Shown here piece by piece: positions 3,102-9,025 of a stretch of 10,066 bases of DNA (within the stretch, counting starts at the first letter, position 1; every line of letters starts with the position of its first letter). The notes below the pieces were generated by a model. It made no database searches and was not told where the DNA came from. It worked only from the letters and a program-made list of their open reading frames with translations. The position numbers and the translations under genes are program-made. Source of the stretch: a virus (lineage: Duplodnaviria > Heunggongvirae > Uroviricota > Caudoviricetes); the IMG/VR virus record IMGVR_UViG_2663763227_000008, positions 1 to 10,066 of that record. One strand, given 5' to 3'.

Positions 3102-3485
3102 ATGACACGCAGAACTCAGTTCAAAGGCAATTCACGTTCTCGTCGTCGTGAGCTTTTAAAGGCAAAGGCATTAGCTAACGGCGTGCTGGCCCGCGAAGAA
3201 GCAATAAGTTCAGAAGTATTACACCGCCCTACTCTAAGCAGAGCGCAGATTCAGGCTAAAGGTACTCACGAAACGCCTGAGCGCATAGAAGACGCTAAGC
3301 CAATTAAGTTCATGGCACAGGACGTGATCTGGCAACAGAAAGAATACAGACGCAATCTGGAGCGAGCGGCCATTGTGTACGCGAATGAGTTTGGACATAA
3401 GCAACCAGAAACTGGTGTATGTCTTCCAAACGTAGCCATTTACGCGGCAGGCTACCGGAAATCAAAACAACTGACGGCGAGGTGA
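3102..3485 (+). CDS. N: N-family transcription antiterminator (P22 gp24-like)
   Basis: SD aggagg before the ATG; first gene after pL/nutL. N-terminal arginine-rich motif GNSRSRRRELLKAKALA; C-terminus LPNVAIYAAGYRKSKQLTAR resembles the P22 gene 24 product C-terminus as I recall it. Confidence 0.75.
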   Translation: MTRRTQFKGNSRSRRRELLKAKALANGVLAREEAISSEVLHRPTLSRAQIQAKGTHETPERIEDAKPIKFMAQDVIWQQKEYRRNLERAAIVYANEFGHKQPETGVCLPNVAIYAAGYRKSKQLTAR

Positions 3486-3545: not shown

Positions 3546-3788
3546 ATGAGAGTAAAAACTATGGGCGCAAGCCCATTAAGTGGTCGTATTTTTCAAGGAA
3601 CATTAAACACTGAAAAAGGAATGTGGGTGGGAAAGAAAGAAGATGTAACCGAACAGGCAGTTAAGGCAGTAGCTGAACACATGATGATAAAAGACCAGAA
3701 ATATGCATACGAAACGAAGGATGGCAAATGGCTGATAATAAGTCATCAAATAGTTGATAAATTACCAGAAGAGTTTATTGCTGATTAA
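3546..3788 (+). CDS. Hypothetical early protein (80 aa)
   Basis: ORF with SD gagga 8 nt upstream; first gene after N, where lambdoid phages carry small host-interaction genes; no recognisable motif. Confidence 0.5.
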   Translation: MRVKTMGASPLSGRIFQGTLNTEKGMWVGKKEDVTEQAVKAVAEHMMIKDQKYAYETKDGKWLIISHQIVDKLPEEFIAD

Positions 3789-3826
3789 AATTATTTTGGC
3801 ATAAACAACAGAATAAACACTGCACT

Positions 3827-3854
3827 GTGTATTCATTCCAACGAGTGAATACAC
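3827..3854 (+). other. 12-bp inverted repeat / RNA hairpin gtgtattcattc-caac-gagtgaatacac
   Basis: Seen directly: 12-bp stem (one G-U), 4-nt loop, no U-run; in the intergenic gap after the 80-aa ORF. Confidence 0.5.
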
Positions 3855-3916
3855 GGAGCAATGTCGCTCGTAACTAAACAGGAGCCGACTTGTTCTGATT
3901 ATTGGAAATCTTCTTT

Positions 3917-3942
3917 GCCCTCCAGTGTGAGGGCCTTTTTAT
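3917..3942 (+). terminator. Intrinsic terminator (tL1-like position)
   Basis: gccctc-cagtgt-gagggc stem-loop followed by ctttttat; lies inside the pL operon, so it would be N-suppressible. Confidence 0.6.
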
Positions 3943-4006
3943 ATGCATACCAATAACGCTTCACTTGAGGCGTTTTCGTTATGCAATCAAACAGAAGGAG
4001 CATCCT

Positions 4007-4177
4007 ATGCAACAGTTCGCTATTGCAGGGGCGGCATCGGTTCGCCCTTTCAACCCGATTTTATCGGTACAGCATTCACGAAAAAACATTTTAACCGGAG
4101 CAGACTTTAAACAACCAAGAATGAAAAGTTTGCTCGAAAAGCTTTGGGATATTTTGAAACAACAAGGCCGTCCATGA
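4007..4177 (+). CDS. cIII: CIII-like small protein (56 aa)
   Basis: SD aggag before the ATG at 4007. MQQFAIAG... N-terminus and SLLEKLWDILKQQG segment resemble lambda CIII (MQYAIAG...; ...WKRLIDILNQPG) from memory. The longer TTG-initiated frame from 3902 is rejected because it runs through the terminator hairpin. Confidence 0.5.
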   Translation: MQQFAIAGAASVRPFNPILSVQHSRKNILTGADFKQPRMKSLLEKLWDILKQQGRP

Positions 4178-4332
4178 GTTTTACAGATAACTGGTCAGAC
4201 GAAGAATTCATTCGTCAGATGAAAGAATTAATCGGTAACGAAGGAGATATTCATGTCACTTGCAACCACAGTGAAGGAGAGCAAGTTACAGAGACGCATG
4301 TACACGCAGAAAGCTCTCTGGTATCGCCATAA
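4174..4332 (+). CDS. Hypothetical small acidic protein (52 aa)
   Basis: ATG overlaps the upstream stop (ATGA) suggesting translational coupling; translation MSFTDNWSDEEFIRQMKELIGNEGDIH...; no recognisable motif. Confidence 0.4.
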   Translation: MSFTDNWSDEEFIRQMKELIGNEGDIHVTCNHSEGEQVTETHVHAESSLVSP

Positions 4333-4433
4333 TGGCGACCGCGAAGGAATGCGGGTATGCCTTAATTTGTCCCGAGTCGAAGTATTAAATCAGCGTTATT
4401 TCCTTGGGCCATGTCCATTCTGAGAACAAACAT

Positions 4434-5039
4434 ATGAGCAAAGAATTTTACGCAAGACTGGCAGCTATTCAGGAGAATCTGAACGCGCCAAAAAATCAGT
4501 ACAACTCATTCGGTAAATATAAATACAGAAGCTGCGAAGACATTCTTGAAGGCGTTAAGCCGTTACTGAATGGCCTGTTTTTATCAATCAGCGATGAAGT
4601 TGTGTTGATTGGTGATCGGTATTACGTGAAAGCCACGGCAACTATTACCGATGGCGAAAACAGTCATACGGCAACCGCTCTTGCACGAGAGGAAGAAAGC
4701 AAGAAAGGAATGGATTCTGCACAAGTTACGGGAGCTACAAGCTCTTATGCACGCAAGTATTGCCTCAATGGTTTGTTCGGCATTGATGATGCGAAAGATG
4801 CAGATACAGACGAGCATAAACATCAGCAGAACGCAGCAGCAAAGCAATCAAAACCATCACCTACACCTGAACAGGTTCTAAAAGCATTCACTGACGCAGC
4901 AATGCAGAAAAACACCGTGGAAGAGCTTAAACAGGCGTTCGCCAAAGCGTGGAAGATGCTCGAAGGCACACCGGAGCAGCACAAAGCGCAGGACGTTTAC
5001 AACATCAGACGAGACGAATTAGAAGGAGCGGCTGCTTAA
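4434..5039 (+). CDS. erf: Erf-family single-strand annealing recombinase (P22 Erf-like)
   Basis: Translation MSKEFYARLAAIQENLNAPKNQYNSFGKYKYRSCEDILEGVKPLLNGLFLSISDEVVLIGDRYYVKATATITDGENSH... closely resembles P22 Erf as I recall it; ATG 4434 preferred over the upstream TTG at 4404. Confidence 0.8.
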   Translation: MSKEFYARLAAIQENLNAPKNQYNSFGKYKYRSCEDILEGVKPLLNGLFLSISDEVVLIGDRYYVKATATITDGENSHTATALAREEESKKGMDSAQVTGATSSYARKYCLNGLFGIDDAKDADTDEHKHQQNAAAKQSKPSPTPEQVLKAFTDAAMQKNTVEELKQAFAKAWKMLEGTPEQHKAQDVYNIRRDELEGAAA

Positions 5040-5422
5040 TGGCACATTCGATTACTGTAAGACTAAACAAGCCCGCAAGAGAGTTTCAGGCCGGGGAAAA
5101 TATCGGATTCAACATCCGTGCTGGCGTTCAGTATTACGATCGCCAGACAAAAAAGAAAGAATGGACAAACTACAGCGCCGTTGTATTTGCCAAGCCGGGA
5201 GCGCAAGCGGATTACTACCGTAGTGTTCTTGTTGAAGGTGGCATTGTAGAAATTACCGGAGAAAACATCAGGGTTGATGTTTATCAGGGGCAAAATGGTC
5301 AATCAATCACTCTTGAATTACTGAATGCAAAGATTGGATTTGCAACTTCAGGAAACAGCCAACAGCAGCAAAGTAGCAATCATCAAAATCATCCTGAATA
5401 CGACGATTCAATTCCATTCTAA
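5039..5422 (+). CDS. Putative single-stranded DNA-binding protein (OB-fold-like), coupled to erf
   Basis: Start overlaps the erf stop (TAATG) with SD aggag upstream. 127 aa with an SSB-like pattern (KEWTNYSAVVFAKPGAQADYYRSVLVEGGIVEITGENIRVDVY) and a Q/S-rich acidic tail ending DDSIPF, reminiscent of the SSB C-terminal tip. Confidence 0.55.
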   Translation: MAHSITVRLNKPAREFQAGENIGFNIRAGVQYYDRQTKKKEWTNYSAVVFAKPGAQADYYRSVLVEGGIVEITGENIRVDVYQGQNGQSITLELLNAKIGFATSGNSQQQQSSNHQNHPEYDDSIPF

Positions 5423-5445: not shown

Positions 5446-5742
5446 ATGCCAGCGCCTCTGTATGGTGCGGACGACGCGCGCCGCTGTTCCGGCAATTCCG
5501 TATCGGAGGTGCTGGATAAATTCAGAAAAAACTACGATCGGATAATGTCGCTACCACAGGAAACGAAAGAGGAAAAGGAATTTCGCCACTGTATATGGCT
5601 TGCAGAGAAAGAAGAACGCGAGCGAATTTACCAGACATCAATCCGACCATTCCGCAAAGCCACATATACCCACTTCCCTGAATATATCGACCCGCGCCTG
5701 CGTAATTACCGCTCACGCTATGGCGCTATCAGTAATGACTGA
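5446..5742 (+). CDS. Hypothetical protein (98 aa)
   Basis: ORF with SD aagga upstream; no recognisable motif. Confidence 0.5.
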   Translation: MPAPLYGADDARRCSGNSVSEVLDKFRKNYDRIMSLPQETKEEKEFRHCIWLAEKEERERIYQTSIRPFRKATYTHFPEYIDPRLRNYRSRYGAISND

Positions 5743-5752
5743 GGAGTTAACA

Positions 5753-6043
5753 ATGAAAACAATGAAGCTGAACATCGACCTCGGAAAATACGTTATTACC
5801 GGAACCAAACACGACCTGATTCTTAGCGAAAGAGGAATTATCAAAGAAGGTGAGAATGCAGGGAAAGAAACACTAAGCCGTATCGGTTATTACAGCAAGT
5901 TTGAGCATCTGGTTAAAGAGTTATTAAACCGTGAAATTCTGTTATCTCAGGCGCAGACGCTACAGGATATTCAGCAGCATATCGAAACTTTAGGTGTGTC
6001 ACTTAGCATGGCTATTGACCAGTTCGTGGAGAGTAAATCATGA
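5753..6043 (+). CDS. Hypothetical protein (96 aa)
   Basis: SD gaggag 6 nt before the ATG at 5753; the TTG-initiated extension from 5600 is rejected because it overlaps the previous gene out of frame. Confidence 0.5.
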
Positions 6044-6204
6044 GAGGACTTGCATACAATCCCGGCATTCTTCCGGCAGAAATGATTATTCGCCAACGCG
6101 TAAAGCCAATGCCATCGAGAGAGGAATTGCTTAAGAGAAATTCTTTTCCATCAGTGAATCAAAACAAATATCTGAATGCGATGTGGCGGAGTGGGAAGAA
6201 ATGA
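6040..6204 (+). CDS. Hypothetical small protein (54 aa), not in the supplied ORF track (below length cutoff)
   Basis: ATG overlaps the upstream stop (ATGA) and its own stop overlaps the next ATG (ATGA), filling what would otherwise be a gap in a coupled gene string; translation [54 protein letters not shown]. Confidence 0.35.
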
Positions 6205-6671
6205 AACAAATGTCACTAATTGAGATGGATGGTTTTCTGAAAGGTAAATGCATCCCACGAGATTTAAAGGTTAACGAAACAAATGCTGAATATCTGGTGC
6301 GTAAATTTGCTGAAGCTGAGGCCAAGTGCGCGGCACTGGCGGTGGAGAATGCGGGAATAAAGTCTGCAATTCCTCAACTACGGGATATTGATGCTGACAA
6401 TGACAATATGGATGACGTATCTCTTGCTGAAGACTTCGGATTCAATCATGCAATAGAACGGATGAGGAGACAGATACCTGAAACCCCAGCCACCGATGCT
6501 TTTCTGGCTGAAGTACGGGCGCAGGGCGTGGAGATGTACGCAGATAACCTCGACAACGCAGCAGACGACGCAGAACGAGGTGGTTTTGATTATGCCGTTA
6601 AGTTTCTACGCAGTGAAGCGTCTAGTGTACGTTTGTTCGCCGGCCAGCTTCGCAAAGGAGGCAAACAGTGA
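6201..6671 (+). CDS. Hypothetical acidic protein (156 aa from ATG 6201; alternative GTG start at 6183)
   Basis: Long ORF in the coupled string; acidic, Ala/Asp-rich; no recognisable motif. Confidence 0.5.
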
Positions 6672-7486: not shown

Positions 7487-7662
7487 TGCGTGTGGCATGT
7501 ATCGGCTTGTTACCGTACCCGACTCGTTTTTGGGCTTCTGCGCTAATTGCAAAGCCACATGTCCTGATGACTGACAACATCATCCCGGCACCAAAGCGCC
7601 GCCATACCGGTATTGCAGCGGCACGACGAGCAGCAAAGAGACGCAGGAGAGCAAAACGATGA
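7486..7662 (+). CDS. Hypothetical small basic protein (58 aa, GTG start), not in ORF track
   Basis: GTG overlaps the upstream TAG; Arg/Lys-rich C-terminus AARRAAKRRRRAKR; its stop overlaps the next ATG (ATGA). Supported only by coupling geometry. Confidence 0.25.
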   Translation: MRVACIGLLPYPTRFWASALIAKPHVLMTDNIIPAPKRRHTGIAAARRAAKRRRRAKR

Positions 7663-7835
7663 AAAACCGTAAAGCAAAATTACTTCTTTTATCGCGTTCG
7701 ACGGGGTACGAGAAGCTACCAATCAGCAATCACAAACGGGCGGTGATCGGCATGTTTGGTAGGGTGGTATTCGCATTTAACTATAAACCCACCGCGTCGC
7801 GTAACAGACGAGAGAAGGGGTACGCAGTGCGATGA
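7659..7835 (+). CDS. Hypothetical small protein (58 aa), N-terminus MKNRKAKLL, not in ORF track
   Basis: ATG overlaps the upstream stop; its first ~20 nt are duplicated at the start of the next ORF (7832). Confidence 0.25.
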   Translation: MKNRKAKLLLLSRSTGYEKLPISNHKRAVIGMFGRVVFAFNYKPTASRNRREKGYAVR

Positions 7836-8023
7836 AAAACCGTAAAGCTAAGATGCTTATCTCCCGTGTATACAGACTTTGCTATCCCAGCCAGTGGTTG
7901 AGAGTTAGCAATCGCTGTGTGGTGTTGTTTTCATTTTCTGGAATTGCCAGAGAGGGAATCAAAGATAAGCGCAGCGCGGCGCAAAACCGCTGGAAAAACC
8001 ACTTGCGCACTAAAGGAGCCTGA
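7832..8023 (+). CDS. Hypothetical small protein (63 aa), N-terminus MKNRKAKML
   Basis: ATG overlaps the upstream stop (ATGA); shares its 5' 19 nt exactly with the start of the previous small ORF. Confidence 0.3.
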   Translation: MKNRKAKMLISRVYRLCYPSQWLRVSNRCVVLFSFSGIAREGIKDKRSAAQNRWKNHLRTKGA

Positions 8024-8024
8024 T

Positions 8025-8234
8025 ATGGCTATTGCCGCAAGTTACACCATGCATCTCTATTGTGATTGCCTCCAGTGTACAGATGGCAAATATAAGTCGC
8101 CAGACTTCGGTGAGTATATAGGTACGTCATGGGCTGGCTGTGCAAAAGAGGCGCGCAAGGATGGCTGGCGAATAAGCAAAGACAAAACGCGTGCTTTTGC
8201 GCCCGGGCATAAAGTTTTGAGGATTAACAAATGA
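8025..8234 (+). CDS. Hypothetical Cys-rich small protein (69 aa; C-x-C-x2-C ... C, possible zinc-binding)
   Basis: SD aaggag 6 nt upstream of ATG 8025; translation MAIAASYTMHLYCDCLQCTDGKYKSPDFGEYIGTSWAGCAKEARKDGW...; the GTG-initiated extension from 7917 is rejected. Confidence 0.45.
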   Translation: MAIAASYTMHLYCDCLQCTDGKYKSPDFGEYIGTSWAGCAKEARKDGWRISKDKTRAFAPGHKVLRINK

Positions 8235-9025
8235 CCACTATAACCAAAGAGCGACTGCTGACAATCAAGCAGTGGCGCGAAACATACGGACCTGGTAGCA
8301 ACGTTGTACTGCCAGCAGAAGAAGCGGAAGAACTGGCACGAATTGCACTGGCATCGCTGGAACGCGAACAGATTCGCCACGAGCATGCCAAATGGTCTGA
8401 CTCCACATTTGGCTGCGTTGGCCCCATTGGTCCACTGAAACACCTCTCAAAAGAGGCTATGGAAACCGCAGCCGAACCAGACGATCTCAGCGAGTGGGCT
8501 GATATGCATTTCCTGTTGTGGGATGCACAGCGCCGTGCTGGCATCAGCGATGCTGAAATTACCGCTGCTATGGAAGATAAATTGAAGATCAACATGGAGC
8601 GCCAGTGGCCTGAACCAAAAGATGGTGAGCCTCGCTTGCACATTAAAGAACCCGGCAACTCTCCGGTAATTCCGGATGATTTATCCACGGTATGCGCTGA
8701 GGCTTATCAGGTTGTAGGAGTTATGGCAGATGCGCTTGGTGTATTCGGTGATGCAGCAGTACAGAAAGTTCTGGATAACCTGTCACAGCAAAAACTTGTT
8801 CACAGAGATGTGCTGCCGTTCTCGCTTCCGGTGACTCCGGATGGTTGGATAAGCTGTAGTGAGCGAATGCCCCCTCAAGATGATTGGATTTTAATTTATT
8901 CAAAGCACGGCGAGTATATGGCAGGACAGGTACAAGGGGAATACGTGGAGTTGAGCGACGGCACTTTATCGTGGTTAGGGAACGCCTTGTTCTGGATGCC
9001 GCTACCAGAACCGCCTCAGGGGTGA
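8231..9025 (+). CDS. DUF550-like (putative dNTP pyrophosphohydrolase-like) N-terminal domain fused to DUF551-like C-terminal domain (264 aa)
   Basis: ATGA overlap with the upstream stop. N-terminal region (MTTITKERLLTIKQWRETYGPGSNVVLPAEEAEELARIA ... WSDSTFG) and C-terminal region (GWISCSERMPP ... WMPLPEPP) resemble these prophage families from memory. Confidence 0.5.
   Translation: MTTITKERLLTIKQWRETYGPGSNVVLPAEEAEELARIALASLEREQIRHEHAKWSDSTFGCVGPIGPLKHLSKEAMETAAEPDDLSEWADMHFLLWDAQRRAGISDAEITAAMEDKLKINMERQWPEPKDGEPRLHIKEPGNSPVIPDDLSTVCAEAYQVVGVMADALGVFGDAAVQKVLDNLSQQKLVHRDVLPFSLPVTPDGWISCSERMPPQDDWILIYSKHGEYMAGQVQGEYVELSDGTLSWLGNALFWMPLPEPPQG

Follow-up and report, generated by a model that had tools for sequence, protein, structure and literature searches.

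An Abc2 orthologue predicted by sequence, with DUF5405 and DUF2737 genes, at the end of the recombination module of an HK97/HK446-type lambdoid phage

Results

Gene content and organisation of the locus

The stretch of DNA analysed here (referred to as the window; 10,066 nt of a Caudoviricetes record in IMG/VR) corresponds to the immunity and early-left region of an E. coli lambdoid prophage or phage of the HK97/HK446 type. It carries a lambda-type cro gene on the minus strand (297-497), a lambda-type cI gene (598-1311), a gene for a ParA-like ATPase (1568-2611) and an N-like antiterminator gene (3102-3485), after which a run of plus-strand genes extends across the block of three small genes considered in this work. 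Between positions 4400 and 6700 the DNA is 96-98% identical to that of HK446, HK97, HK022, HK620-like phages, Sf101 and Stx-converting phages, and parts of the window were found in 3858 of 5426 complete E. coli genomes. A scan of the window against Rfam returned no RNA family, and the window contains no Chi sites, an uninformative absence as only 0.28 would be expected.

The recombination (Rec) locus within this region is headed by a gene for a strongly acidic protein of 52 residues (4174..4332, plus strand; pI 4.4), a homologue of gp33 of HK446 and HK75 (phrog_2123, 6.6e-42; 88% identity to HK446 gp33). Next on the plus strand come erf, which encodes a single-strand annealing protein (4434..5039; Pfam ERF, 2.1e-44; 100% identity to HK446 gp32), and an SSB-like gene of the HK97 gp40/HK446 gp31 type (5039..5422; phrog_44, 1.8e-28; 99% identity to HK446 gp31), whose product has the C-terminus DDSIPF. 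HK97 gp40 has been placed in the class 'SSB-1b' from its predicted fold (PMC12315714). No exonuclease, Gam or Abc1 gene was found in the window, and among the window ORFs scanned there was no match to Exo, YqaJ or RecE.

A first-pass annotation of this locus had described erf and ssb followed by coupled ORFs of 98, 96 and 54 codons, and all of these are present at the positions it gave. The three genes, all on the plus strand, are abc2 (ORF1, 98 residues; 5446..5742; PF11043 and phrog_656), a DUF5405 gene (ORF2, 96 residues; 5753..6043; PF17399 and phrog_154) and a DUF2737 gene (ORF3, 54 residues; 6040..6204; PF10930 and phrog_1117). The length of ORF2 is counted from the ATG at 5753, the mechanical ORF beginning at a TTG at 5600. 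Directly 3' of ORF3, on the same strand, lies an EaE/Ea22-like gene (6201..6671; PF13935, 9.8e-07). ORF1 and ORF2 are separated by 10 nt, and the abc2 stop codon TGA is embedded in a GAGGAG Shine-Dalgarno sequence, such that the junction TGAGGAnTTnACnATG (5740..5755, plus strand) runs from the stop through the Shine-Dalgarno sequence to the next start codon. ATGA overlaps join ORF2 to ORF3 at 6040 and ORF3 to the EaE-like gene at 6201. Each of the three ORFs has a Shine-Dalgarno-like sequence on its 5' side, and no promoter-like or terminator-like sites were seen on the plus strand within the block. The genes most probably make up the distal part of an HK97/HK446-type Rec module and the neighbours that constantly lie downstream of it, and would be co-transcribed from PL. 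Comparison with diverged homologues gave dN/dS values of 0.12-0.41 for ORF1, 0.12 for ORF2 and 0.06-0.26 for ORF3, and this purifying selection on all three ORFs indicates that they are real genes.

The three ORFs had also been described as uncharacterised and devoid of recognisable motifs, a description we could not sustain. All three score above the curated Pfam gathering thresholds, and RefSeq routinely labels such proteins 'phage anti-RecBCD protein', 'DUF5405 family protein' and 'DUF2737 family protein'.

ORF1 is an orthologue of P22 Abc2 by sequence

ORF1 matched the Pfam profile PF11043 (Anti-RecBCD_p2) with 203.6 bits (cut-off 25; 4.1e-61), its residues 1-98 aligning with positions 1-97 of the 97-position profile, and matched phrog_656 ('abc2 anti-RecBCD') at 2.3e-56. 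Over its full length the protein is 92% identical to P22 Abc2 and 98% identical to HK446 gp30, and among proteins of solved structure it matched the chain named 'Anti-RecBCD protein 2' in the cryo-EM entries 8B1T and 8B1U (1.8e-55). Eight substitutions and one extra residue separate ORF1 from P22 Abc2, and most of these fall towards the C-terminus, in a segment disordered in the solved structure, where residues 76-81 differ (THFPEYI in ORF1 vs TKFIE-I in P22 Abc2). Residues 1-66, which were modelled on RecC, carry only three substitutions (A11/P, R32/L and S65/A), and Pro68 is kept, in the context IRP68FRK. By these comparisons ORF1 is a genuine orthologue of the P22 protein. The first-pass annotation had proposed, from position, that all three ORFs might modulate host nucleases; the proposal is borne out for ORF1 and is unsupported for ORF2 and ORF3.

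[quoted passage not shown] It modifies RecBCD instead of blocking the DNA-binding site of the enzyme (PMC9836394). The host prolyl isomerase PpiB co-purifies with Abc2, and Pro68 sits in the isomerase active site (PMC9836394). In Murphy's model, discussed in the same paper, Abc2 makes RecBCD unresponsive to Chi and the product is redirected to the phage protein Erf. Full activity in P22 needs Abc1 and Arf in addition (PMC9836394).

The setting of ORF1 fits that of a phage of this kind. The order is erf-ssb-abc2, with an annealing protein present and a phage exonuclease absent, in agreement with the report that Abc2-type phages are without an exonuclease gene of their own (PMC9836394); HK97-type modules have been classed as annealing protein (SAP) plus SSB-1b plus Abc2 (Casjens, Smith and colleagues, PMC12315714). 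Like P22 Abc2, ORF1 is encoded in the early-left Rec module, 3' of an Erf-family protein, has the same size and retains Pro68, and its locus has an orf56-type gene downstream. Unlike in P22, the gene preceding abc2 in the window is SSB-like and is not abc1. The hosts also differ, P22 infecting Salmonella and the window belonging to E. coli; the Abc2 complex that was solved contained E. coli RecBCD (PMC9836394). The closest relatives of the whole block are gp30-gp29-gp28 of HK446, together with the corresponding genes of vB_EcoP-720R6 and PhiR12, which have the same gene order and 96-99% protein identity, whereas HK97 gp39-gp38 represents the same block minus the DUF5405 cassette. Lambda Gam, phi80 GamL and T7 gp5.9 share with Abc2 the host enzyme that they target and their position in the module; they are full RecBCD inhibitors, however, and are not homologous to any of the three ORFs. 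Profiles for Gam (PF06064) and GamL (PF28165) did not match any of the three at E <= 0.1.

ORF2 is a DUF5405 protein carried on an optional cassette

ORF2 matched PF17399 (DUF5405) with 27.3 bits (gathering cut-off 21.6) and phrog_154 at 4.7e-32. Identity is 99% to HK446 gp29 and 67% to ES18 gp45, and in tblastn ORF2 aligned over its whole length with the Orf83 protein of P2-like phages (~4e-10, ~33% identity). ORF2 is accordingly assigned, from these alignments, to the family that includes P2 Orf83, Sf6 gp24, ES18 gp45 and HK446 gp29.

In P22 abc1 and abc2 directly follow erf, as the first-pass annotation had stated, and P22 Abc1 (94 residues) and ORF2 (96 residues) are both encoded beside abc2 in the Rec module. 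The two nevertheless differ in position and in sequence. In the P22 order erf-abc1-abc2-orf56-eaE, abc1 separates erf from abc2, whereas ORF2 is encoded 3' of abc2. The sequence comparison with P22 Abc1, P22 Abc2 and Gam suggested at the outset recovered Abc2 in ORF1 but gave only E = 3.2 in BLASTP between ORF2 and P22 Abc1, and Gam was unmatched. The SSB-like protein was also considered as Abc1, and BLASTP gave no alignment; tblastn of P22 Abc1 against the entire window returned a best E of 1.8. An Abc1 homologue in SE1 is named 'sigma-70 family sigma factor' in RefSeq, whereas ORF2 is predicted to form four strands and two helices.

This prediction comes from a confident AF2 model of ORF2 (pLDDT 88, 36 homologues) in which four strands are followed by two helices, and ORF2 would accordingly be expected to fold as a compact domain of that composition. 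A fold search with the model against the PDB gave nothing at E <= 0.001 (best E = 0.25), and sequence searches of the PDB with ORF2 and with ORF3 gave nothing at E <= 10. The PC4-like ssDNA-binding protein of phage T5 (4BG7) was considered as a relative, its strand-strand-strand-strand-helix order resembling that of the model; the likeness was not significant (E = 1.1, TM-score 0.34). In BFVD the top Foldseek matches were DUF5405 proteins (TM-scores 0.75-0.83), and the matches comprised uncharacterised small phage proteins from many groups, including Bacillus, Lactobacillus and Cellulophaga phages. A DUF5405 profile search yielded 920 cluster representatives (50% identity), and those among the best 150 are mostly stand-alone proteins of 85-100 residues.

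DUF5405 is a variable component of abc2 loci. It was present in 19 of 80 and in 10 of 103 sampled loci, or about 10-27% overall, and is absent from HK97, P22, HK620-type phages and most abc2 loci (~75-90%); in complete E. coli genomes blastn located DUF5405 in 369 places and abc2 in 1364. The junction TGAGGAnTTnACnATG is nearly identical before DUF5405 (in the window and HK446) and before DUF2737 (in HK97 and P22). Since the 3' junction of abc2 is alike with or without the cassette, DUF5405 sits exactly at the gene boundary. In IMG/VR loci with the DUF5405 subtype of the window the order abc2-DUF5405-DUF2737 was found in 80 of 80, and the upstream recombinase varied. ORF2 is thus an optional, self-contained cassette placed at the start codon of the gene that follows abc2, a mosaic boundary.

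More distant DUF5405 members have other settings. In Klebsiella prophages the gene comes behind a GamL-RecT-Gp157 module, and a Providencia prophage has it towards the int end of its early-left operon. In a few annotated phage records it was further located immediately 3' of the gp46/47-like nuclease genes of a T4-like Morganella phage and among the early genes of an N4-like Klebsiella phage. P2 Orf83, a member of the same family as ORF2 in a different genomic setting, is encoded in P2-like phages between orf82, for a TraR-like (zinc-finger) protein, and the nickase gene A. The recurring theme of these distant contexts is early DNA-metabolism regions. A gene for a 97-residue protein 5' of DUF5405 in the Klebsiella prophages was examined as a divergent Abc2 and proved to encode an HTH protein instead.

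ORF3 is a DUF2737 protein with a conserved core

ORF3 matched PF10930 (DUF2737) with 107.7 bits (cut-off 25; 2.6e-31) and phrog_1117 at 4.1e-38, with identities of 75% to P22 Orf56 and 96% to HK446 gp28. Judged by this similarity it is the homologue of P22 orf56, HK97 gp38, HK620 hkaI and HK446 gp28. As orf56 sits after abc2 in P22 itself, ORF3 replaces no abc gene. ORF2 and ORF3 match families of unknown function only, and neither showed homology to proteins of an unrelated known function. Our literature search for DUF5405 and DUF2737 found one incidental mention, and searches on orf56 and on HK446 brought up no functional work on either gene.

The ORF3 protein is basic, with a pI of 11 and a net charge near +7.5, and AF2 modelled it with low confidence (pLDDT 66, pTM 0.24), features consistent with a short, basic and probably partly disordered peptide. 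The family core, P-x-P-[ST]-REEL[LM]KRNSFP...NKYLN.M, spans 27 residues and is common to Jerseyvirus and Kagunavirus phages, being strongly conserved in hundreds of these virulent genomes. The Abc2 matches obtained did not include the Jerseyvirus and Kagunavirus genomes that carry the core.

abc2 and DUF2737 are near-constant neighbours

DUF2737 followed abc2 in 79 of 80 loci with a window-like Abc2, the one exception having no room downstream, and in 102 of 103 loci drawn from Abc2 clades 62-66% identical to that of the window; in the exceptional locus L212 an insertion splits the start of the DUF2737 gene. Conversely, abc2 lay directly upstream in all 80 loci picked by similarity to DUF2737. 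Overall the two genes were adjacent in at least 260 of the 263 loci sampled, and they are also adjacent in P22, ES18, SE1, HK97 and HK446. Across the lambdoid loci sampled, the flanking recombinase and downstream genes vary while abc2 and DUF2737 stay adjacent. In complete E. coli genomes DUF2737 was found in 1693 places vs 1364 for abc2, and lower blastn sensitivity for divergent abc2 clades may account for part of this excess.

Despite this adjacency, the allele clades of Abc2 and DUF2737 are nearly independent of one another (Pearson r = 0.13 over 127 distinct pairs), and a single DUF2737 type was found with two Abc2 clades. Such independent assortment argues against a co-evolving physical interface between the two proteins.

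The corresponding HK446 locus holds a reported trigger and an inhibitor of P2 OLD

In a preprint of 2026 about P2 OLD, gp33-Erf-gp31-Abc2 is treated as the Rec locus of HK75 and HK446, and gp33 alone sets off OLD toxicity (bioRxiv 10.64898/2026.07.10.737580). The protein encoded directly after DUF2737, gp27, inhibits OLD and was named Oad2, and its HK75 homologue, with 54% identity, does not block OLD; the authors describe the region as a hotspot where anti-defence genes are tied to recombination loci (bioRxiv 10.64898/2026.07.10.737580). A library screen of HK446 for OLD inhibitors returned gp27 only, and gp29 and gp28, which correspond to ORF2 and ORF3, go unmentioned (bioRxiv 10.64898/2026.07.10.737580). 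In the window the corresponding EaE/Oad2-like gene (6201-6671) has diverged from its HK446 counterpart, with only 41% identity to gp27 (Oad2), and is 63% identical to HK97 gp37. PADLOC and NCBIfam scans of the three ORFs gave no matches.

Discussion

We regard it as highly probable that the block consists of a functional Abc2 orthologue and two distinct accessory genes, DUF5405 and DUF2737, that have no relation to Abc1 or Gam. From the 92% identity to P22 Abc2 we infer that ORF1 shares its RecC binding and its abolition of the Chi response. ORF1 would bind the Chi-recognition (inactivated-helicase) domains of the host RecC, giving a Chi-blind RecBCD, and the host prolyl isomerase PpiB would engage its Pro68. 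The Abc2-bound enzyme would remain an active helicase and 5' exonuclease, supplying the exonuclease that the phage module lacks, and, following Murphy's model, the 3' single strand would pass to the phage Erf and SSB proteins instead of to RecA. For ORF2 the likeliest role is that of a dispensable accessory protein whose binding partner, of host or phage origin, acts on DNA. The 27-residue core of ORF3 would most likely bind a conserved enterobacterial host factor, and ORF3 may act alongside the takeover of RecBCD, probably being unnecessary for the binding of Abc2 to RecC.

Other readings of ORF2 and ORF3 deserve consideration. PHROG 154 and several RefSeq annotations, including those in HK446, ES18 and KpCHEMY26, name DUF5405 a replication initiation protein, and in P2-like phages its position immediately 5' of gene A, for the replication nickase, could seem to agree. 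We find this extremely improbable, however, as a description of ORF2, which is a single domain of 96 residues that matches no initiator, HTH or nuclease family; the P2 initiator, as annotated, is gpA, DUF5405 is dispensable in most related phages, and the depositors of ES18 themselves wrote 'function unknown'. The replication genes of lambdoid phages, moreover, are located in the rightward operon and are not known from the early-left one. The label looks like a propagated annotation with no visible basis. A different possibility is that all three proteins act on RecBCD, with ORF2 a non-homologous replacement of Abc1 and ORF3 a subunit or cofactor of the Abc2-RecBCD complex. The ORFs do lie directly after erf and ssb and are translationally coupled to abc2, the near-invariable adjacency of abc2 and DUF2737 would fit, DUF5405 follows GamL-RecT and gp46/47-like nuclease genes elsewhere, and P22 depends on Abc1 and Arf for full activity (PMC9836394), with no Abc1 in the module of the window. 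Yet DUF5405 is lacking from the large majority of abc2 loci and is present in phages without Abc2, and virulent phages carry the DUF2737 core with no Abc2 match seen there. DUF2737 coexists with Abc1 in P22 and SE1 and is therefore no substitute for Abc1. Given also the independent assortment of Abc2 and DUF2737 alleles, and the fact that RecBCD-Abc2 complexes with and without PpiB were purified and solved with Orf56 nowhere mentioned (PMC9836394), we judge joint action of the three on RecBCD to be very unlikely.

The surroundings of the block raise the further alternative that ORF2, ORF3 or both are anti-defence proteins that counter immune systems of the host or of prophages, for example systems that guard RecBCD and respond to phage interference with it, and do not act on RecBCD itself. 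The locus is a described hotspot with an OLD trigger in gp33 and an inhibitor in Oad2 (bioRxiv 10.64898/2026.07.10.737580), the window has homologues of both of these flanking genes, and DUF5405 is small and patchy in its presence and absence, as is typical of accessory counter-defence genes. Weighing on the other side, the HK446 screen for OLD inhibitors yielded gp27 alone (bioRxiv 10.64898/2026.07.10.737580), neither PADLOC nor NCBIfam gave a match, and DUF2737 is near-constant with a strongly conserved core, unlike fast-evolving anti-defence genes; on balance we hold an anti-defence role to be unlikely. The constancy of the pair also invites the idea that DUF2737 is an overlooked functional partner in the Abc2 pathway, which seems to us decidedly unlikely. 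Were it true, DUF2737 could tune steps after the binding of Abc2 to RecC, such as the hand-over to the annealing protein or the use of PpiB, or it could instead shield the phage from immunity that senses the takeover of RecBCD; in that case DUF5405 would be an optional extra at this same hotspot of conflict.

Under the reading that we prefer, of Abc2 with two separate accessory genes, the block is made up of a known gene and two catalogued, uncharacterised phage families, and forms a routine piece of a recombination module common in E. coli phages; about one in five complete E. coli genomes has the block. It adds little that is new about abc2, a textbook hijacker of RecBCD with a solved structure. 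Its value is chiefly corrective, in that the genes prove to be already annotated, ORF2 is not Abc1, and the widespread 'replication initiation' label on DUF5405 lacks visible support. A modest lead is offered by DUF2737, which is a near-constant neighbour of abc2 inside a locus reported to include gp33, which triggers P2 OLD, and Oad2, which inhibits it.

Sequence context of abc2, DUF2737 and DUF5405

Among the abc2 loci that we sampled, only one (L212, 2063-2952 of that locus) lacks an adjoining DUF2737 gene. The order of this locus is abc2, a truncated DUF2737 start, an insertion of ~700 nt and then an intact DUF2737 gene.

DUF5405 also occurs away from abc2. Three Klebsiella prophage loci (L276, L277 and L278; region 3688-4273) encode a DUF5405 homologue (64% identity) that lies 3' of GamL-RecT-Gp157, a different recombination module. 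The gene preceding this homologue specifies a 97-aa HTH protein that bears no relation to Abc2. Two genes 3' of the homologue is a TraR-like zinc-finger gene, an arrangement that recalls the pairing of TraR-like orf82 with the DUF5405 gene orf83 in P2.

DUF5405 proteins are widely labeled 'replication initiation protein', both in PHROG 154 and in the RefSeq entries for HK446 gp29, ES18 gp45, KpCHEMY26 gp32 and MP1 gp042. Because we found no support for this label in the DUF5405 sequence, its predicted fold or the original depositor notes, it looks like a propagated annotation.

Neighboring genes related to HK446 proteins reported to act on OLD

At the head of the Rec locus, a gene on the + strand (4174-4332) encodes a strongly acidic protein of 52 aa (pI 4.4), which shares 88% identity with HK446 gp33. 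By itself, gp33 reportedly sets off the abortive-infection system OLD of phage P2, and it has been proposed to be a new RecBCD manipulator (preprint, bioRxiv 10.64898/2026.07.10.737580, 2026). The PHROG label for the gp33-like family is 'recombinase'. Comparison of the gp33-like protein with P22 Arf gave no significant similarity (E = 1.6), the two having in common only a short FSDEEFI-like motif.

Immediately 3' of the three-ORF block is an EaE/Ea22-like gene (6201-6671, + strand), whose product shares 63% identity with HK97 gp37. It is also a relative of Oad2 (HK446 gp27), an anti-OLD protein, but with only 41% identity. Since a homologue with 54% identity is reported not to inhibit OLD (bioRxiv 10.64898/2026.07.10.737580), any anti-OLD activity of the window's protein is uncertain.

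Other features of the window

Further 3', a 29-nt direct repeat on the + strand (7657-7685 and 7830-7858; copies 86% identical and 173 nt apart) overlies the initiation codons of two short ORFs, both of which begin MKNRKAK. The repeat could reflect duplication of a gene start, or it could be a regulatory element that occurs twice. Beyond it, a + strand gene (8231-9025) encodes a 264-aa protein in which a dATP/dGTP pyrophosphohydrolase domain (PF04447, 4e-41) is joined to a C-terminal DUF551 domain.

Between cI and N lies a + strand gene (1568-2611) for a ParA/MinD-like P-loop ATPase of 347 aa, whose sole PADLOC match was a weak one to PDC-M28B (E = 0.0011). Regardless of position within the prophage, annotations that fall under the window's matches in E. 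coli prophages of related type include Nmad5 proteins and proteins with a BstA C-terminal domain. The ATPase may serve the prophage in an accessory or defensive role.
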